DNA from: an uncultured Rhodospirillaceae bacterium
GTDB taxonomy: Bacteria; Pseudomonadota; Alphaproteobacteria; MPNO01; UBA830
DNA length: 64,000 bases
Direction: 5' to 3'
Assembly (NCBI GenBank): GCA_963977005.1
Contig: CAXBMQ010000012.1
Location: 4,307-68,306 of the forward strand
The notes beneath the pieces are model-generated. The model made no database searches and was not told where the DNA came from. It saw only the letters and a list, made by a program, of their open reading frames with translations. Made by a program: the position numbers and the translations under genes. Positions 6,112-50,614 of the stretch are shown here, in pieces; within the stretch, counting starts at the first letter, position 1, and every line of letters begins with the position of its first letter.

Positions 6112-7947
6112 CTACCGACGGCCGAAAAGCCGTTCTATATCCGACAGGTCCAGCTCGACATATGTCGGACGGCCATGATTGCACTGCCCGGAATGGGGCG
6201 TAACCTCCATCTCCCGCAGCAGGGCGTTCATTTCCTCGGAGGTCAGCCGACGTCCGGCACGAACGCTGCCATGGCATGCCATGGTCGAACACACGTCTTC
6301 GAGCCGTTCCTTCAGGGCAAGCCCGGCACCGAATTCTTCGAGATCGTCCGCAAGGTCCCGCAGAAGCCCTGTCACGTCGGACTGGCCGAGTAACGCAGGC
6401 ACTTCGCGGACGACCACCGCCCCGGGGCCGAATTTTTCGATCGACAACCCCAGTTCCTCGAACTCGGCAGCGCGTTCGCACAACCGGTCGACGGCGGCTT
6501 CGTCCATCTCGACGACCTCCGGGATCAAAAGGCCCTGGCGCCTGGCACCGCCCTCGGCAAGCGCGGTCTTCATGCGTTCGTAAACCAGTCTTTCATGCGC
6601 TGCATGCTGATCGACGATGACGATACCGGTTTCGGTCTGGGCGACGATATATGTCTCGTGCACCTGCGCACGGGCCGCGCCGAGGGGGAAGTTCGTTGCC
6701 GGCGACGCTTGCGGCTGGGCATATCCGTCCGTTGCAACCCGTGCAGACGGCGCATCGAAGGCATTCAGCACGCCTGTAGATGGCGGCGCCTGATAGGCCG
6801 CCGCAATTTCCGCCAGTTCGCCCGGCAATGCCGATGACTGACGCCAGGGCATTACCCCCCCACCGGGAACGCCTCCCGTCGCTGCGCCCGCATGGCCGGC
6901 GTGAAAAGCACCCAGCGCCGCCGCGGCGACCGTCGTCGACGCCTTGTGACCGGCCGCTTCCAGCGCATGACGTAGCCCGCCGACAATCAGCCCGCGCACC
7001 AGCCCCGCGTCCTGAAACCGAACCTCGGCCTTGGCCGGATGCACGTTAACGTCAACGCATTCCGGCGGCACGTCGAGAAACAGCGCCACCATCGGGTGAC
7101 GGTTACGCGCGAGAAAATCCTGATAGGCACCGCGCACCGCCCCGACCAGCAGGCGATCCTGCACCGGGCGGCCATTGACGAACAGATACTGCGCCCGCGC
7201 GTTTCCCCGGTTCAGCGTCGGGACGCCGGCATAACCGGAGAGCCTGATACCACCGCGCTCGGCCGAGACGGCAACGGCATTATCGGCAAATTCGCGTCCC
7301 ATCACCGCCGACAGACGGTCGAGCCGCGCAGTCAGAAGGTCTCCCTGGGCGGGGCCGTAACGGAAGCGCGTCCGGTCTTCGTCGGCCAGCGAGAACGCGA
7401 TCTCCGGATGCGCCATCGCAAGCCGCTTGATCGCATCGGCAGCATGATCGACTTCGGTCCGCGGCGTCTTGAGGAATTTCAGCCGCGCAGGCGTCGCGTA
7501 GAACAGGTCGCGGACTTCGATACGCGTGCCGTTCCCGAGCGCCGCCGGCTTTGGCGGCTCCCTGCGCCCGCCTTCGATCAGGATGGCGTATGCCTCGGAT
7601 GCGCCGGCCGCACGACTGGTGATAGACAGCCGCGAGACGGCACCGATAGACGGCAACGCTTCTCCCCGAAAGCCGAGGGTACGGATATCGACAAGATCGT
7701 CGTCCGGCAGCTTGGAGGTCGCATGACGTTCAACAGCGAGTTCAAGCTCGTCCGCCGTCATCCCGCACCCGTCATCCGTGACCGAGATCAGGAGTCTGCC
7801 ACCGTCCTCAAGAACGACGTCGATGTGACGCGCTCCCGCATCGATAGCGTTCTCGACGAGTTCCTTCACTGCAGCGGCCGGCCGTTCGATCACCTCGCCT
7901 GCCGCTATACGGTTGACCAGCGTTTCGGGCAGACGGCGAAGGGTCAA
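6112..7947 (-). CDS. mutL: DNA mismatch repair protein MutL
   Basis: GHKL ATPase N terminus ([29 protein letters not shown]), 611 aa, C-terminal dimerisation domain. Confidence 0.92.
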
Positions 7948-21968: not shown

Positions 21969-21983
21969 GAACAAAACAAGAAC
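21969..21983 (+). promoter_or_regulatory. LexA (SOS) box of alphaproteobacterial type, GAAC-N7-GAAC, upstream of imuA
   Basis: gaacaaaacaagaac, with an overlapping gaacatttgttc palindrome, about 20 to 30 nt upstream of the imuA start. Confidence 0.7.
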
Positions 21984-22001
21984 ATTTGTTCTCGCATAAC
22001 A

Positions 22002-23048
22002 TTGGAACATACGATGCCGAGGCCCTTCGGAAGCGCCAGGAACCGCTCTCTTCCCTCTCAGAAACGGGAAAACGGGGCGATTCCGGGTACGCTTCCGTCC
22101 CGTCTTGCGGCCGCCCATGCTCTCATGGAACACCCAACCAGTCACCCGGTCAGCAACCCGACCACTCTGGAACAGCTGAAGGCACAGATCCGCCAGCTTG
22201 AAGGATTTGGCGGCACGCTGACCGGGACCAAACAACAGCCCCTGCCCTTCGGCGTCGCCGCGATAGACGATCATCTGCCCGGCGGCGGGCTGGCAAGGGG
22301 TGCGCTGCATGAAGTATTCGCCGCGGATGCCGGTATTGCCACGGCGTTCTGCGCCCTGCTGGCAGGCCGCCTGGCGAACGATACCGAAAACCACGCAATT
22401 CTCTGGTGCGAACGTCCCTGGGCACTCGATGCCGGCGCCCTTTACGGCCCTGCCCTGCTCCAGTTCGGTATTGATCCGGCACGCATGATTCTGGTCCGCC
22501 CCCGCCGCGATGCGGATGCGCTCTGGGCGATGGAAGAAGGACTGCACTGCGGCCGGGTCGCCGCCGTCATCGGGGAAATAACGGACATGTCCCTCACTGC
22601 CAGCCGGCGGCTGCAGCTTGCCGCCGAAGAAACCGGCGTAACCGCCCTGATGCTGCGCCCGAAAACGGACAGGCCCGCTCCCAGCGCCGCGGCCACCCGC
22701 TGGCGGCTCGATGCAGTGGAACATGAAGCCCGAAACACACCGTCTGCCGTGCAGGCGAACGACAATAAGCAAACACGATCAGACCCTCCGGGCCCTGATC
22801 TCATCGGCCCTCCGGGCCTGGACATTGACGGCCCTCCGGGCCTGGACATTGACGGCCCTCCGGGCCTGAACATTGACGGCCCTCCGGGCCTGGGCGCTGC
22901 GCGGTGGCGGGCGGAACTTTTCCGCTGCCGTGGCGGGGCCGCTGCGAACTGGATGATGGAGTGGAACGATGAAACGGGTAATTTCTCTCTGGCTGCCGAA
23001 ATTTGCGACCGACCGGCTGTGCCGTCTGCGGCAAGACTGGCTGGATAG
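22002..23048 (+). CDS. imuA: ImuA (SulA/RecA-fold protein of the translesion mutagenesis cassette) with an extended repeat-containing C-terminal tail
   Basis: RecA-like core (LHEVFAADAGIATAFCALLAGRL; HAILWCERPWALD; GRVAAVIGE). First gene of the imuA-imuB-dnaE2 cassette. Likely ATG start at 22014. Confidence 0.8.
   Translation: MEHTMPRPFGSARNRSLPSQKRENGAIPGTLPSRLAAAHALMEHPTSHPVSNPTTLEQLKAQIRQLEGFGGTLTGTKQQPLPFGVAAIDDHLPGGGLARGALHEVFAADAGIATAFCALLAGRLANDTENHAILWCERPWALDAGALYGPALLQFGIDPARMILVRPRRDADALWAMEEGLHCGRVAAVIGEITDMSLTASRRLQLAAEETGVTALMLRPKTDRPAPSAAATRWRLDAVEHEARNTPSAVQANDNKQTRSDPPGPDLIGPPGLDIDGPPGLDIDGPPGLNIDGPPGLGAARWRAELFRCRGGAAANWMMEWNDETGNFSLAAEICDRPAVPSAARLAG
22784..22895 (+). repeat. 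In-frame 24-bp tandem repeat inside the imuA 3' region
   Basis: About 4.5 copies of ggccctccgggcctggacattgac (units at 22806, 22830 and 22854, plus partial copies). Encodes (GPPGLD/NID)n. Confidence 0.85.
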
Positions 23049-24633
23049 TCCGCTTGCACTGGTCGATGAGACCGGCGGCAAGCTGATACTCCATGCGGTC
23101 AATACGGTCGCCGAACAGGCCGGTATCCGCACGGGCATGACCCTCGCCGATGCCCGCGCGATCCTGCCTGACCTGCAAACCAGCGAAGCCGATTTCGACG
23201 CCGAAAACCGCGCACTGACCCGGCTCAGCGACTGGTGCGGCCGGTTCACCCCGTGGACGGCGCCGGACGAAGACGCCAGCGGCGCGGCGTTTGGCGGTGC
23301 CGGCTCGGTCTGGCTCGACGTCACCGGCTGCGCCCATCTGTTCGGAGGCGAAGACGCGCTGATGCGCGATATCGTCGCCCGGCTCGATGCGCTCGGCTAC
23401 ACGGCCTATGCCGCGATTGCAGACACTCCGGGCGCCGCCTGGGCGGCCGCCCGCCACACCGCCTACAAGCGCAAGCGCTGGACAAGCATTGGCAGGGGCC
23501 GCGCGCGCGATGCAATCGCCGCCATGCCGGTCGCCGGGCTGCGTCTCGCCCCGGCAACCGTCGCCGGACTTCAGGCCGTGGGTCTGCGGCGTATCGGCGA
23601 TCTGATGCCGATCCCGCGCACCGCGCTTGTCGACCGTTTCGGCAGCGACGTCGCCGATCGTCTCGACCAGGCACTGGGCGACCGGCCGGAACCGGTCTCG
23701 CCGCTGGCCGTGACCAGCCCGTGGCACGCCCGCCGGGCTTTTGCGGAACCGATCGGCCGGACCGAAGATATCGCCGATGCTGTCCGGGAACTTGCCCGCG
23801 ATCTTGCCGCCACGCTGGAGGCCGACGGGATCGGCGCCCGCCGCCTGACCCTCGTCTTCTATCATCCGGACGGCACGATAGCCCGGCTGGAGGCCGGTAC
23901 CAGCCGGGCCAGCCGCAATGCCGCGCATCTTGCCCGGTTGTTCACCGCCAAGCTTGACCGCATCGAAGCGGCTTTCGGCATCGATGCCATCACCCTGACC
24001 GCGACAACCAGCGAAAAACTCTCGCCCCGGCAGGCAGCGCTCGACAGGCGCAGCGAACAGGACGATGCCGGCGTCGCCGAACTGGCCGACAGGCTCAGCA
24101 ACCGCCTCGGCGGCGAAAACGTCGTACAGATGACCCTGCAGGAAAGCCATATCCCCGAGCGGGCGATCGTCACGTCGCCCGCCACCGCACGAACCCGTCC
24201 GGCACCGGCCGCTCCCTGGCGCGCCAGCCCCCCCCTGAAACGGCCGCTTTCCCGGCCCCGTCCTCTTCGGCTCCTCCCCCGGCCCGAAGAGGTGGAGGCC
24301 ATTGCACCGGTGCCGGACGATCCCCCCGTCATGTTCCGCTGGCGCAAACAGGTTTTCCGCATCGAACATGCCGACGGGCCGGAACGCATCGCCCCCGAAT
24401 GGTGGCATGACGGGCTCGGCCTGACGGAGGGCGAACGGGACGGCCTGGAAAGCGATGCGTCAGACCGCGAAGAAGCCGATGCGTCTCAGGCATCGTCCGC
24501 CTCTATCCAGGACAATATCCGCGACTATTACCGCATCGAAGACCGCCGCGGCCGCCGTTTCTGGGTCTACCGCGAAGGTGTCTACAGATCCGGCGCGCAG
24601 CCCCACTGGTACGTCCACGGCGTCTTCGGATGA
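22969..24633 (+). CDS. imuB: ImuB (Y-family polymerase-like, catalytically inactive scaffold)
   Basis: UmuC/DinB-like N terminus MKRVISLWLPKFATDRL, 554 aa. Its start overlaps imuA in another frame. Confidence 0.85.
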   Translation: MKRVISLWLPKFATDRLCRLRQDWLDSPLALVDETGGKLILHAVNTVAEQAGIRTGMTLADARAILPDLQTSEADFDAENRALTRLSDWCGRFTPWTAPDEDASGAAFGGAGSVWLDVTGCAHLFGGEDALMRDIVARLDALGYTAYAAIADTPGAAWAAARHTAYKRKRWTSIGRGRARDAIAAMPVAGLRLAPATVAGLQAVGLRRIGDLMPIPRTALVDRFGSDVADRLDQALGDRPEPVSPLAVTSPWHARRAFAEPIGRTEDIADAVRELARDLAATLEADGIGARRLTLVFYHPDGTIARLEAGTSRASRNAAHLARLFTAKLDRIEAAFGIDAITLTATTSEKLSPRQAALDRRSEQDDAGVAELADRLSNRLGGENVVQMTLQESHIPERAIVTSPATARTRPAPAAPWRASPPLKRPLSRPRPLRLLPRPEEVEAIAPVPDDPPVMFRWRKQVFRIEHADGPERIAPEWWHDGLGLTEGERDGLESDASDREEADASQASSASIQDNIRDYYRIEDRRGRRFWVYREGVYRSGAQPHWYVHGVFG

Positions 24634-25211
24634 TCGAAGAAAATAACAGGAGAACAGAAATGAAAACGAATACCCTTACCCCCCTTGCTGCCCAAGAGCC
24701 TGAAGCCGGACCCGAAGCCGAAGCAGGTCTCTATTTCTTCGCCATATACACACATCGCCAGGAGACACGTCTGGGCAGGGTATCCCGGCGGGGGACAAGA
24801 CCCAGCGCCCTCGGCCGGACGGTGGAAGCGCACTGGCATAACCTGTCGCGTATCTTCCCCGATATCCGGCTTGATGCCTTTACCCTGATGCCCGACCGCA
24901 TCCACGGGATCATCGAAATCGAGGAAGGCGCCCCGCACGGCATCGCCGCTATCCTGCGGACCTTCAAATCGTTCTCTGCACGCGAGATCAACAAGCTGCA
25001 GCAGACTCCCGGAAACATGATCTGGCAACAGGCGCATGACGAACGCATCCTGCACGACGCCGCCGATCTGGAGAAGATGCAGACACATATCATGACCGCC
25101 CCCGCGCGCTGGCGGGACGGCCGCCGACAACGCCTCAACCCGGTATCCCGCCGGAGATCAGGCGCTTTCCTGAACTGGTTCCTGCCATCCTTCCTTGCCG
25201 CTGAACATTAG
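24630..25211 (+). CDS. Y1 HuH 'IS200-like transposase' fold protein (PF01797-like) with degenerate catalytic motifs
   Basis: FTLMPDRIHGII aligns to lMPNHVHLLi (HuH becomes R-I-H). ILRTFKSFSAREIN..IWQQAHDERILHDA..MQTHIMTAPAR aligns to the RAYT/IS200 core, with the catalytic Y replaced by H. The ATG overlaps the imuB stop (ATGA). Confidence 0.6.
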   Translation: MIEENNRRTEMKTNTLTPLAAQEPEAGPEAEAGLYFFAIYTHRQETRLGRVSRRGTRPSALGRTVEAHWHNLSRIFPDIRLDAFTLMPDRIHGIIEIEEGAPHGIAAILRTFKSFSAREINKLQQTPGNMIWQQAHDERILHDAADLEKMQTHIMTAPARWRDGRRQRLNPVSRRRSGAFLNWFLPSFLAAEH

Positions 25212-25279: not shown

Positions 25280-28200
25280 ATGTCCCTTTATGCAGAACTC
25301 GAAGTCACCACTAATTTCTCCTTTCTGCGAAGTGCCTCGCACCCGGCGGAGATGGCGAAAACGGCAGCGGCGCTTGGCCTGGCGGCAGTGGCGGTGGCGG
25401 ATCGCAACACTCTGGCAGGGGTTGTCCGCACTCACCAGGCGGCGAAGCAGGCGGGGATAAAGCTTGTCGTCGGCGCCCGGCTCGACCTGCGAGATGCGCC
25501 GTCTCTTTTGTGTTTTCCGACCGACAGGGCGGCTTACGGGCGGCTGTCGAGACTGATTACCCTGGGCCGCCGACGCGCGGCGAAGGGCGATTGCGAAATT
25601 TATCTCGAAGACGTCTTCGCCCATTCGGGCGGCCAGCTTTTTATCTCCCTGCCGCCCCGGGAATGGGAGCGAAAACCAGACACCGCCTACACGGCTCACC
25701 TGCACCGCCTGCGCGAGGTTCTGGGACGGGATGTCTGGCTCGCTGCCCGCTGCCGTTATCACGGTGATGACGCCGTCCGGCTCTGGGCGCTTGCCCAGCT
25801 TGCGGTCGATGTGAACATCCCGATGGTCGCCACCAACGACGTACGGATGCATGTCCCCGACCGCAAACCCCTGATGGACGTGCTTACCTGCATCCGCGAA
25901 CACTGCAGCGTCGATCAGGCCGGGTTCCGCCTCATGGCCAATGCCGAACGTCACTTCAAACCGCCGGCGGAAATGGCGCGGCTGTTCCGCCGTCATCCCG
26001 AAGCCGTCATGCAGACGATGGCAATCGCCGAACGCTGTACGTTTTCGCTCGACGAGCTGCGTTACGAATACCCCGATGACGAAGCCCCGCCCGGCACCAC
26101 ACCGCACGCGGAACTGACACGCCTCGCCCGGGAAGGCTCGAAAACCCGTTACCCTGACGGCGTGCCGCCGAAAGTCAGCGCCCAGATCGACTACGAACTG
26201 AAACTCATCGACCAGCTGAATTACGCTCCCTATTTCCTCACCGTTCACGATATCGTCCGGTTTGCACGTTCGCAGGGTATTCTCTGCCAGGGACGCGGAT
26301 CGGCGGCGAATTCGACTGTCTGCTACTGCCTCGGCATCACGGCCATAAACCCTGCCGAAATCGACCTGCTGTTCGAACGTTTCGTTTCTGCCGAACGCAA
26401 CGAGCCGCCGGATATCGACGTCGATTTCGAGCATGAGCGGCGCGAGGAGGTCATCCAGTACATCTACGCGAAATACGGCCGCGAGCGCGCCGGGCTGGCC
26501 GCGACCGTCATTCATTACCGCACGCGCATGGCCGTCCGCGAAGTCGGCAAGGCCATGGGACTGACCGAAGACACCATCGCGACGCTGGTCGCCACCGTAT
26601 GGGGCTGGCGGTCAGACGGGCTTGAACGAAAGCATATCCGCGAAGCGGGACTCGACCCCGACGATCCGCGCCTGTCACTTGCCATCCGCCTCGCCGCCGA
26701 ACTGACGGGTTTTCCCCGGCACCTGTCACAGCATGTCGGCGGCTTTGTGATTACCCGCGGGCCGTTATCCGAACTTGTCCCCATCGCCAATGCCGCGATG
26801 GAAGACCGCACGACCATCGAGTGGGACAAGGACGACCTGGATGCGCTTGGCATCCTCAAGATAGATATCCTCGCACTGGGCATGCTGAGCTGTATCCGCA
26901 AGGGGTTCGACCTGCTGGAACGGCATTACGGCCGCAAGGTCGATCTCGCCACCGTACCCACGGGCGATCCCGCGGTGTACGACATGCTGTGCGAGGCCGA
27001 TTCCATCGGCGTGTTCCAGGTCGAAAGCCGTGCACAGATGACCATGCTGCCCCGGCTGAAGCCGCGCACGTTCTACGACCTGGTCATCGAGGTTGCGATC
27101 GTGCGGCCCGGCCCGATCCAGGGCGACATGGTGCACCCCTATCTGCGGCGGCGGAACGGCGAGGAGGCCGTCGACTTTCCGTCAGAGGAACTGCGCGAGG
27201 TACTGGCGAAAACCCACGGCGTGCCGCTTTTCCAGGAACAGGCGATGAAAATCGCCATTGTCGCTGCCGGATTCACCCCGTCGGAAGCGGATCAGTTGCG
27301 CCGCGCCATGGCCACCTTCCGGCATACCGGCACGATCCACACTTTCGAGGAAAAACTGATCGAGGGGATGGTCGCCAAGGGTTACGAGCGCGATTTTGCC
27401 GAGCGCTGTTTCCGCCAGATCGAAGGGTTCGGCGATTACGGCTTCCCCGAAAGCCATGCGGCAAGCTTCGCCCTGCTGGTCTACGTCTCCGCCTGGCTGA
27501 AATGTCACTATCCGGACGTGTTTGCCGCTGCCATCCTGAACAGCCAGCCGATGGGCTTCTACGCCCCGGCCCAGCTTGTCCGCGATGCCCGCCAGCACGG
27601 CGTCGAGATACGGCCCGTCGATGTGAACCACAGCGATTGGGACAACACGCTTGAAACCGGGACGGCGAAACCCGGAAAACAGGACTATCGCGCGCTCCGG
27701 CTCGGTTTCCGCCAGATCAAGGGATTTCACGAAGACAGCGCCGCCGCCCTGATCGATGCCCGCACGGCGCTGGGCCGGGATTTTACCGATCCGGCGGAAA
27801 TCAACCGGATGGCCCGGCTGACAGGTCCCGTACTGGAACGCCTTGCGCGGGCCGATGCCTATGCCTCGATGAAACTGCGGCGGCGCGACGCCTTATGGGC
27901 CGTACGCGCCCTGCCGCCGGCACCGCTCCCCCTGTTCGCAGCCGGGGAGAACCGCGAGGATCCGGAGGTTACGCTGCCGGCCATGGCGATTGGCGAAGAG
28001 GTCACGCACGATTACGCGGCATTGCGCCTGTCCCTTAAAACGCACCCGCTGGCGCTGCTGCGCGACGAACTGGCAGCGGCAGGCGCCGTCCCTGCCGACA
28101 GCCTGCTGCACGCAAAAGACGGCAAGCGTGTTACCGTCGCCGGGTTGGCCCTTGTACGCCAGCGCCCGGGCACGGCCAGCGGCGTTATCTTCATCACGCT

Positions 28201-28531
28201 GGAGGACGAGACCGGGGTGGCCAATCTCGTCGTCTGGCCCAAAACGTTCGAGCGTTTCCGCCCCGTCGTGATGGCCGCCCGTTTGATCAGGGTAACGGGA
28301 AAGCTGCAGCGCGAAGGCATCGTCACCCATGTCATCGCCGACCACCTGGAAGACATGACTCACCGCCTGCGCGCACTTGCCGGCCCGGATTTCAAATCCG
28401 ACGACAGGCGCAAAAACGCAAATGCGGCCTATGAAAACAATCTCGCCCGTGCCGACGAGGTCAAAAGCCCTCTCCCCGAAAGCCGCCAGAGCGCATCGCG
28501 CAAACTGTTCCCGTCACGGGATTTTCACTGA
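25280..28531 (+). CDS. dnaE2: Error-prone DNA polymerase DnaE2 (ImuC)
   Basis: 1083 aa PolIIIalpha-like protein: PHP domain N terminus (TNFSFLRSASHP), polymerase core, OB fold. It follows imuA-imuB. Confidence 0.93.
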   Translation: MSLYAELEVTTNFSFLRSASHPAEMAKTAAALGLAAVAVADRNTLAGVVRTHQAAKQAGIKLVVGARLDLRDAPSLLCFPTDRAAYGRLSRLITLGRRRAAKGDCEIYLEDVFAHSGGQLFISLPPREWERKPDTAYTAHLHRLREVLGRDVWLAARCRYHGDDAVRLWALAQLAVDVNIPMVATNDVRMHVPDRKPLMDVLTCIREHCSVDQAGFRLMANAERHFKPPAEMARLFRRHPEAVMQTMAIAERCTFSLDELRYEYPDDEAPPGTTPHAELTRLAREGSKTRYPDGVPPKVSAQIDYELKLIDQLNYAPYFLTVHDIVRFARSQGILCQGRGSAANSTVCYCLGITAINPAEIDLLFERFVSAERNEPPDIDVDFEHERREEVIQYIYAKYGRERAGLAATVIHYRTRMAVREVGKAMGLTEDTIATLVATVWGWRSDGLERKHIREAGLDPDDPRLSLAIRLAAELTGFPRHLSQHVGGFVITRGPLSELVPIANAAMEDRTTIEWDKDDLDALGILKIDILALGMLSCIRKGFDLLERHYGRKVDLATVPTGDPAVYDMLCEADSIGVFQVESRAQMTMLPRLKPRTFYDLVIEVAIVRPGPIQGDMVHPYLRRRNGEEAVDFPSEELREVLAKTHGVPLFQEQAMKIAIVAAGFTPSEADQLRRAMATFRHTGTIHTFEEKLIEGMVAKGYERDFAERCFRQIEGFGDYGFPESHAASFALLVYVSAWLKCHYPDVFAAAILNSQPMGFYAPAQLVRDARQHGVEIRPVDVNHSDWDNTLETGTAKPGKQDYRALRLGFRQIKGFHEDSAAALIDARTALGRDFTDPAEINRMARLTGPVLERLARADAYASMKLRRRDALWAVRALPPAPLPLFAAGENREDPEVTLPAMAIGEEVTHDYAALRLSLKTHPLALLRDELAAAGAVPADSLLHAKDGKRVTVAGLALVRQRPGTASGVIFITLEDETGVANLVVWPKTFERFRPVVMAARLIRVTGKLQREGIVTHVIADHLEDMTHRLRALAGPDFKSDDRRKNANAAYENNLARADEVKSPLPESRQSASRKLFPSRDFH

Positions 28532-45917: not shown

Positions 45918-46703
45918 GTGTATACCGTCGTGGACGGAAGTTTAACATTCGACGTCCTCGTTTTATCGGGCAAATCCCAGTGGACCAGCATTTCCCGCTG
46001 GCCCGACGCGATATCTGCCCAGAACGAAGCCCGCAAGCTGGTCGCGAGCAAGAAGCACCTCGGCGTGAAGGTATCGCAGGAAAGCTACGATCATGCCGAA
46101 AACCGCTTTATGGAAAAGACGCTTTTCAAGCATCTGAAGAGCGACAAAAAGGCGACGCAACCGGCGGCGGAAGCGGCGCCGGCGTTTTCGGCCGACAGTT
46201 TCGGTGAAACCGACGATTACGACGAATTCGACGAATTCGACGACTTCGCCGATTACGACGACGGTCCGGACTGGGTAGCGCCCATCTTCGGCATTTTTGC
46301 AGCTCTCGTACTCATAGTGGGTCTTGGAATTTTCTTTTTTGAAGAAACAGCGGAGGTCGGTTCCTGGGCAAAATCAGAGTTCAAATCGGAGGGCAAGTCC
46401 GACTACTTCGTATTCCCGCTACCCGCAGCCATAACCAACGTCTCGAATGGCGATGAGAACGTCTCGGTCAGGATCGATCTACAGCTCGAACTTGACGGCG
46501 CACACGACGTCAAAGCGGTAGAGTTCGCGCTCGCCCAGATTATGGAATCGGTGATCATTGAAATTCAGGAGACCGATGCCGGTGACCTTCAGCGGAGCGA
46601 GAAAATTCAGTTGCTGCGCGCCAAACTCAAACAAAAAATACAGGACGCCATGGGGGAAACGAACCTCAATGGCGTCCTGTTTAACAATATTCAGGTATTC
46701 TAG
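45918..46703 (+). CDS. FliL-like membrane protein with an atypical long N-terminal cytoplasmic region and acidic linker
   Basis: Single TM (WVAPIFGIFAALVLIVGLGIFFF). The C-terminal 110 aa match the FliL periplasmic domain pattern (YFVFPLPAAITNVS..VSVRIDLQLEL.., ending NNIQVF). Preceded by a D/E/F/Y-rich run. Confidence 0.5.
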   Translation: MYTVVDGSLTFDVLVLSGKSQWTSISRWPDAISAQNEARKLVASKKHLGVKVSQESYDHAENRFMEKTLFKHLKSDKKATQPAAEAAPAFSADSFGETDDYDEFDEFDDFADYDDGPDWVAPIFGIFAALVLIVGLGIFFFEETAEVGSWAKSEFKSEGKSDYFVFPLPAAITNVSNGDENVSVRIDLQLELDGAHDVKAVEFALAQIMESVIIEIQETDAGDLQRSEKIQLLRAKLKQKIQDAMGETNLNGVLFNNIQVF

Positions 46704-47840: not shown

Positions 47841-47894
47841 GCGTAAGTAACTATACGGTTATTTCAGGCTAGGACCCGGCATCCGGCCTGTCAA
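47841..47894 (+). promoter_or_regulatory. Conserved 54-bp promoter/operator block, copy 1, containing the palindrome TAACT-N4-GGTTA
   Basis: gcgtaagtaactatacggttatttcaggctaggacccggcatccggcctgtcaa. About 87% identical to copy 2 at 50561. Lies in the divergent region between the binding-protein and permease genes. Confidence 0.6.
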
Positions 47895-50560: not shown

Positions 50561-50614
50561 GCGTAAGTAACTAAACAGTTATTTCAGGCTAGGGGCCGGG
50601 CAATCGCCTGTCAA
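50561..50614 (+). promoter_or_regulatory. Conserved 54-bp promoter/operator block, copy 2, with the perfect palindrome TAACT-N4-AGTTA
   Basis: gcgtaagtaactaaacagttatttcaggctaggggccgggcaatcgcctgtcaa. Lies in the divergent region between the MetE-like and tetR genes. Confidence 0.6.

Follow-up and report, generated by a model that had tools for sequence, protein, structure and literature searches.

The imuA gene and its operon

The window (the whole 64-kb stretch of DNA that was analysed) carries the gene order imuA-imuB-dnaE2 on its forward strand, and the same order is present in relatives. The first gene, imuA, occupies positions 22014–23048 and encodes 344 amino acids. It is followed by imuB (22969–24633, 554 aa), which matches the Pfam families IMS and IMS_C and encodes an inactive homologue of Y-family polymerases, and by dnaE2 (25280–28531, 1083 aa), which encodes an error-prone DNA polymerase and scores 1459.5 bits against NCBIfam NF004225 (cut-off 939). 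Just 5' of imuA, at 21969–21991, lies a sequence resembling a LexA (SOS) box. It comprises GAACAAAACAAGAAC, with the arrangement GAAC-N7-GAAC (21969–21983), and an overlapping palindrome, GAACATTTGTTC. The GAAC-N7-GAAC arrangement recurs at the corresponding site in each of the 20 relatives' loci checked. We take it to be the alphaproteobacterial form of the LexA box, and the site to be a putative operator. Both the gene order and this SOS operator, which is predicted from sequence, place the first gene among imuA genes.

Homologues of the encoded protein are numerous (1959 were found), and several of these are called 'protein ImuA' or 'ImuA family protein' by JGI or NCBI. The relatives that carry them are metagenome-assembled genomes of uncultured marine Alphaproteobacteria. 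The original prediction had named the host gene as imuA, upstream of imuB (start 22969) and dnaE2, and the homologues and the gene order agree with it. Against the NCBIfam model ImuA_translesion (NF033429), the protein scores 92.6 bits over residues 73–241 only, below the cut-off of 150. A sequence search of the PDB returned weak matches to RecA and SulA only, and no solved ImuA. An AlphaFold2 (AF2) model of the protein finds RecA for all of its top Foldseek matches in the PDB (E 6e-12, TM ~0.47), as expected of a RecA-like fold.

The start of imuA can be placed by comparison. The N-terminal sequence MPRPxGSARNRSLPPQKR is conserved among ImuA relatives in the alignment, and because this conserved segment (MPRPxGSARNRSLP) begins at the ATG at 22014, the protein has 344 residues rather than 348. 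The TTG at 22002, where the mechanically called open reading frame begins, is probably four codons too early. The length excess that had been claimed (348 aa, about 90 aa longer than is typical) therefore shrinks: the protein is ~59 aa longer than the homologue median of 285 aa.

At its other end, imuA runs into the next gene. The first 80 nt of imuB overlap the end of imuA, and an overlap of 80–83 nt is kept in essentially all loci of the clade. A GGAG sequence at 22957–22960, 8 nt 5' of the imuB ATG at 22969, is a likely Shine-Dalgarno sequence for imuB. It falls within the codons for the conserved ImuA residues MEW.

An in-frame tandem repeat in imuA

Within imuA lies an array of 24-bp units, far stronger than any other tandem repeat of the 64-kb window. 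Tandem Repeats Finder (TRF) reports a period-24 array at 22784–22893 with 4.5 copies, 90% matches, and a score of 144, and a core of 3.7 copies with 96% matches and a score of 171. The array is 112 bp in total. It is in frame with the open reading frame 22002–23048, and its unit length is a multiple of three.

The array consists of degenerate, full, and partial units. It begins with a degenerate unit (22782–22805, DPPGPDLI), which is unlike the core units at 8–9 of its 24 positions and is counted in the 4.5-copy array. Three full units follow (22806–22877), encoding GPPGLDID, GPPGLDID, and GPPGLNID, with pairwise differences of 0, 1, and 1 nt. The first two of these (22806–22829 and 22830–22853) are exact copies of GGCCCTCCGGGCCTGGACATTGAC, while the third (22854–22877) has a single G>A mismatch, which changes Asp to Asn. 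A terminal partial unit (22878–22895, GPPGLG) is the ancestral copy and holds the family-wide PGLG motif ahead of a conserved RW strand. Each of the three full units contains the palindrome GGCCC-TCC-GGGCC, which occurs four times in the array, against 0.19 occurrences expected in the whole window.

Chance can be set aside as a source of such regularity, as no match to the unit arose in 100 dinucleotide shuffles of the window. The near-identity of the head-to-tail units is well above what chance would give (TRF score 171), and this, together with a 24-bp period in frame with a real gene, is characteristic of a coding minisatellite, or variable-number tandem repeat (VNTR). The 24-bp in-frame repeat reported by the original prediction is thus real, and TRF and the exact unit matches bear out its coordinates and description to within a few bases.

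The repeat occupies an internal loop

The array encodes residues 257–294 of ImuA. In the alignment of homologue tails, it lies between the strand TRWRLDAV and the C-terminal block ARWRAELFRCRGG..NWMMEWNDETGNFSLAAEICDRPxVPSAARLAG, both of which are conserved. All members of the clade retain this block, from ARWRAELFRCRGG to ARLAG, up to the final residue. Since some 50 conserved residues follow the loop, the array is an internal insertion and not a tail. It had been described as a C-terminal extension, a description that neither the alignment nor the AF2 structure prediction sustains.

In the AF2 model, the array falls in a variable, predicted disordered loop (residues ~236–296, encoded by 22719–22901) between beta-strands at residues 228–234 and 297–305. 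Mean confidence (pLDDT) in 10-residue blocks is 45–54 over residues 241–290, compared with 81–96 in the blocks of the flanking strands. The strands after the loop (297–305, 311–318, and 323–326) are themselves modelled with block means of 81–89. The model as a whole has a mean pLDDT of 75.7, and residues 75–235, the core, exceed 90. These values depend on the alignment supplied: 102 more diverse sequences gave the mean of 75.7, while 45 close sequences gave a poor model with a mean of 47, and the low confidence of the loop is partly due to the gapped alignment there. In the order of its elements, this region would resemble the hairpin located after loop L2 of RecA.

The loop is 64 aa long here, compared with a median of 29 aa among 135 homologues, and it is net acidic (10 D/E against 3 K/R). 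It does not account for the whole of the ~59-aa excess of the protein, to which 20 aa inserted in an N-terminal linker and further segments of the loop contribute, besides three to four extra units (~24–32 aa). The N-terminal linker (residues ~25–50, encoded by 22086–22163) is itself hypervariable and forms a second hot spot of indels and repeats. Its pLDDT is below 50, and the alignment places insertions of 0–35 aa there among homologues, including lineage-specific repeats such as NLANLANLANL in protein P0019.

Copy number varies between close relatives

Variation in copy number between strains, as the original prediction had proposed, is borne out by two close comparisons. A Tara protein, P0001, is 99% identical to the ImuA of the window at aligned positions and has two units fewer. 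Look-ups by exact sequence returned no existing record of either protein. Similarly, two relatives' loci, L032 and L034, share 99.3% identity over 7,036 bp, and the sole indel between them is one 24-bp unit. All of the array variants observed stay in frame.

Tandem repeats are known to cause assembly errors (PMC6868369), and the copy number in the window could in principle have been altered by collapse or expansion. This is very unlikely, however. The array is merely 112 bp long, arrays of the same architecture are found in many independent assemblies, and three of these (L002, L032, and L033) carry identical arrays.

Comparison across the clade suggests how the array arose. Clade members with an ImuA of 286 aa, as well as distant ImuA homologues, have a single (E/P)PGLG followed by xxRW. 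Judged from these sequences, the ancestral state is one PGLG-containing segment, which matches the partial unit that ends the array of the window. Sister lineages have two to four units in the same 24-nt phase, with lineage-specific halves (GLMSD, GLDSN, GLESN, GLEAN, and GLTFD). Units of the window differ from one another by 0–1 nt and from the nearest units of other lineages by at least 4 nt, which is the pattern of turnover expected of a VNTR. Because likeness within an array exceeds likeness between lineages, the expansions are recent and lineage-specific. The lineage of the window and its sister lineages have each duplicated the PGLG segment independently, reaching one to ~4.5 copies.

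Similar changes have occurred elsewhere in the same proteins. The same ImuA loop contains 27-nt units in other relatives (L045 compared with L062), 12-nt units encoding GQxD (L003 compared with L044, with flanks 99.8% identical), and 12-nt units encoding ANDR (L036, L041, and L039). A loop in the C-terminal domain of ImuB carries (AAN)8 in relative L031. Between L003 and L031, which are 96% identical over 7 kb, four of five in-frame indels fall in the repeat-prone loops of ImuA and ImuB, and the fifth is of 15 nt. The N-terminal linker of ImuA also differs by a 12-nt indel between these two.

Origin of the units

Taken together, these observations make it probable that the array is a slippage-driven, in-frame coding minisatellite (a 24-bp unit encoding eight residues, GPPGL-D/N-I-D) in a tolerant, predicted disordered surface loop of a RecA-like ImuA. 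Units would be gained and lost by replication slippage, or by unequal recombination between near-identical GC-rich units. The palindrome GGCCC-N3-GGGCC, together with the GC-rich, near-identical character of the units, plausibly promotes misalignment. The resulting changes in length would persist, being in frame and located in a loop that may accept any length. The product would be a longer flexible spacer, rich in proline and glycine and net acidic, at the tip of a beta-hairpin.

A mobile origin of the unit was also considered. The unit could have begun as an in-frame insertion of a REP or MITE-like palindrome, mobilised by a RAYT-like gene of the operon. The core of the unit is indeed palindromic, a RAYT-like open reading frame lies 1.7 kb downstream as the fourth gene of the operon, and REPs have been found inserted in DNA-repair genes, including dnaE2 (PMC3733652). 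Against this, a scan of the 64-kb window revealed no dispersed copies of the unit and no matching dispersed family of the kind that REP elements form. The exact unit is confined to the array, and GGCCCNNNGGGCC has one other site in the window. The stem is just 5 bp, and there is no adjacent GTAG/CGTC-tag architecture. Furthermore, the 3' arm of the palindrome corresponds to the ancestral PGL codons, which are present in distant ImuA genes free of the repeat, and two residues are missing from the RAYT-like protein of this lineage, namely the first histidine of the HUH motif and the catalytic tyrosine. An origin from REPs is therefore exceedingly improbable, and the lack of dispersed copies in the window led to its rejection.

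Nucleic acid structure and the start of imuB

The palindromes might also act at the level of DNA or mRNA. Hairpins formed by GGCCC-TCC-GGGCC/CCUCC, or pairing with the Shine-Dalgarno sequence of imuB, could regulate imuB translation, or the repeat could have multiplied a hairpin that was already conserved. The end of the repeat is 74 nt from the imuB ATG, and an effect on translational coupling had been suggested on the grounds of proximity. In both the minimum free energy and the centroid fold of a 221-nt mRNA segment, the first full unit (CAUCGG..CCUCC) pairs with the GGAG and AUG of imuB (z = -2.2). There is also hairpin potential at the equivalent site in single-copy relatives, in spite of different residues being encoded there.

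Synonymous recoding of the same peptides gave structures that were equally stable, with p values spread from ~0 to 1 across 47 sequences. The stability is thus no greater than the encoded peptide requires, which largely refutes regulation by nucleic acid structure and led to the rejection of a conserved hairpin in imuA. Folded as single-stranded DNA, the array is unremarkable (z = -1.05). A search of Rfam gave no match to a family, the nearest being a sub-threshold match to the L19 leader, in the promoter region. As for the pairing with imuB, neither L002 nor any single-copy lineage has CCTCC, and a conserved regulatory role of the pairing is therefore excluded. The idea that the CCUCC of the unit sequesters the imuB Shine-Dalgarno sequence was accordingly rejected: the minimum free energy fold shows this pairing, but it is not conserved in relatives. 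The region is, moreover, traversed by the ribosomes that translate imuA. A regulatory nucleic acid element is consequently highly improbable, and no evidence was found that the array affects translational coupling to imuB, the predicted pairing not being conserved in relatives.

Tolerance or function of the loop

The remaining question is whether the length of the loop matters to the protein. The original prediction held that copy number could modulate the interface between ImuA and ImuB. In other species, ImuB binding maps to the RecA-like core. In Myxococcus xanthus ImuA, it maps to residues 160–222 (PMC11002988), and in Mycobacterium smegmatis ImuA', the RecA-NT motif of ImuB contacts G97–M144 (PMC11791113). 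No evidence was found for an effect of the array on this interface. Nevertheless, a predicted disordered C-terminal region of the M. xanthus protein regulates its ATPase (PMC11002988), which shows that disordered parts of ImuA can matter.

This precedent gives some room for adaptive tuning, in which mutasome activity would be adjusted, as by a rheostat, through the copy number of an acidic, Pro/Gly-rich loop, and slippage would create heritable variation in SOS mutagenesis. The loop might be autoinhibitory, might mimic DNA near the RecA-like DNA/ATP site, or might serve as a spacer governing how far the C-terminal strands extend. Several independent expansions in the same ImuA loop and in other mutasome loops are in keeping with this, as are the net acidity of the loop and the rank of the array as the strongest tandem repeat in 64 kb. 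Repeated expansion of one loop by consistently acidic, proline-rich units could reflect selection for a longer loop. On the other side, the units of different lineages vary freely in sequence (DID, ESN, DSN, MSD, and TFD), which is what a lack of constraint would produce, a single copy suffices for many clade members, and the mapping of ImuB binding elsewhere points away from the loop. Tuning of this kind is unlikely.

A broader version of the same idea extends to the operon as a whole. In this marine alphaproteobacterial clade, independently expanding in-frame repeats in disordered loops of ImuA (at two sites), the C-terminal domain of ImuB, and the RAYT-like fourth gene would form a set of contingency loci that tune mutability by slippage, with the acidic ImuA loop inhibiting the RecA-like DNA/ATP site of its own protein to a degree set by its length. 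Populations would then gain heritable, reversible variation in the strength or speed of SOS mutagenesis. Such an arrangement is very unlikely. If the length of the loop altered mutasome activity, slippage would tune mutability, and nothing found here indicates that it does.

The slippage-driven minisatellite in a tolerant loop fits these observations better. The freely varying sequence and number of units, together with the many relatives with one copy, argue for tolerance over a specific function, as far as can be read from the sequences. Since the length changes are in frame and the loop is tolerant, the phenotypic effect is most likely nil or slight, and we infer that the array is neutral. 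Nothing points to a dedicated role of the array in binding ImuB or in the translation of imuB. The array is best read as a commonplace slippage polymorphism rather than as a novel functional element.

The array is informative even so. It marks where ImuA tolerates insertions, namely at the tip of the beta-hairpin and in the N-terminal linker. For the poorly understood ImuA-ImuB-DnaE2 mutasome, such sites can assist in the design of constructs, in tagging, and in the reading of structure predictions. The length of the array can also serve as a marker at the level of strains in an uncultured group of marine Alphaproteobacteria.

Comparison with known systems

The closest kin of the array are coding tandem repeats of other prokaryotes, which give rise to disordered regions and differ in copy number. 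These include the tandem repeats of Borgs (PMC9879509), copy-number variation of repeats in Mycobacterium tuberculosis (PMC12817950), and a census of tandem repeats and disorder in proteins (PMC7230257). The shared features are near-perfect, head-to-tail units with a length that is a multiple of three, recent and lineage-specific expansion, location in a low-complexity segment predicted to be disordered, and copy number that varies between close strains. Unlike the VNTRs described there, the imuA array is small (~4.5 units), lies in one housekeeping/SOS gene of a marine alphaproteobacterium, and shows no sign of selection or of a phenotype. No relevant paper emerged when the literature was searched for ImuA in connection with tandem repeats. 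We class the array as a further coding VNTR of the kind that gives rise to an intrinsically disordered segment.

Two other comparisons are less apt. The Gly-Pro-Pro tripeptides of the array are shared with bacterial collagen-like (G-X-Y)n proteins, and the repeat had been called collagen-like for this reason. The array has four to five units only, and its eight-residue period spaces the glycines by 3, 5, 3, 5, so that the G-X-Y register breaks after two triplets. ImuA has no match to Pfam Collagen, or to any Pfam family at E <= 0.01. With neither the register nor the family match, the label does not hold. The array also shares with the contingency loci of phase variation a slippage-prone repeat within a gene, the copy number of which varies in populations. 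Those loci, however, act through shifts in reading frame or promoter spacing, whereas the imuA array is not in a promoter, and its 24-bp unit keeps the frame, which makes on/off switching impossible.

Among ImuA proteins, finally, the protein of the window is largely of the known kind. It has a RecA-like fold, is encoded in an operon with imuB and dnaE2 downstream of an SOS box, and has a disordered N-terminus and another disordered segment towards the C-terminus. It departs from known ImuA in that this second segment lies inside the protein as a loop, with conserved strands after it and then a conserved tail encoded in the 80-nt overlap with imuB. The loop is, in addition, built of tandem units, and its length is roughly double the family median. 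A further departure concerns the core, where alignment to RecA places an alanine at the position of the Walker-A lysine in this clade.

A RAYT-like gene within the cassette

The cassette contains a fourth gene, a homologue of RAYT/IS200-like Y1 transposases, which lies between imuB and dnaE2 on the plus strand (24630–25211). Its open reading frame scores 43.8 bits against the NCBIfam model REP_Tyr_transpos, under the cut-off of 80, and matches Pfam Y1_Tnp with an E-value of 0.008. A PDB sequence search with the protein returned no match. The gene is kept in the same cassette slot in many relatives, at 55–79% identity, and the distant cassettes L104 and L107 also have a RAYT-like gene at the equivalent site (33–36% identity). 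These distant copies retain an HIH motif and the catalytic Tyr, whereas the lineage of the window has DRIH as its HUH motif and a His at the catalytic Tyr position. This difference in sequence suggests that, in the window's lineage, the RAYT-like gene is a domesticated, catalytically dead component of the cassette.

The gap between imuB and dnaE2 is also long (720 nt) at four of the relatives' loci, L007 and L049–L051. Since a tblastn search of these four with the RAYT-like open reading frame gave no match, they may carry a different insert.

Variation and constraint in ImuA and ImuB

In a profile alignment with RecA (1xp8), the P-loop GPESGGKTT pairs with the ImuA segment AADAGIATA (residues ~103–111; window ~22310–22340), which places an Ala at the Walker A lysine position in the consensus of the window's clade. 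ATP hydrolysis by the ImuA proteins of this group may not proceed as it does in RecA or Myxococcus xanthus ImuA.

The N-terminal linker of ImuA (22086–22163) is a second hypervariable region of this protein, with an insertion of 0–35 aa. Relatives have their own tandem repeats here, for example NLANLANLANL and ANLSASLSANHPASLPAS, and the L003 and L031 loci differ by a 12-nt indel. A loop in the C-terminal domain of ImuB (residues ~482–512; window ~24412–24504) is likewise hypervariable in length. It contains (AAN)8 in L031 (~6447–6500) and GTGEDGTGED in another relative, and ImuB lengths across the clade range from 544 to 583 aa.

Gene overlaps as long as 80–83 nt are uncommon. The overlap of imuA and imuB, which are read in different frames, is 80 nt in the window (22969–23048) and 80–83 nt throughout the clade. 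The ImuA tail that it encodes (...ETGNFSLAAEICDRPxVPSAARLAG) is conserved clade-wide, which may simply be a constraint imposed by the ImuB N-terminus.

Other repeats in the window

Besides the imuA array, the sole further notable tandem repeat within the 64-kb window is at 46211–46262 (plus strand; period 9/18, score 60–76), inside the open reading frame at 45918–46703. It encodes an acidic stretch, DDYDEFDEFDDFADYDD, directly before a predicted membrane segment of the 261-aa protein. A 54-nt sequence (GCGTAAGTAACTATACGGTTATTTCAGGCTAGG...) occurs in two copies with 81% identity, spaced 2.7 kb apart (47841–47894 and 50561–50614), and this pair may represent a repeated intergenic regulatory element.
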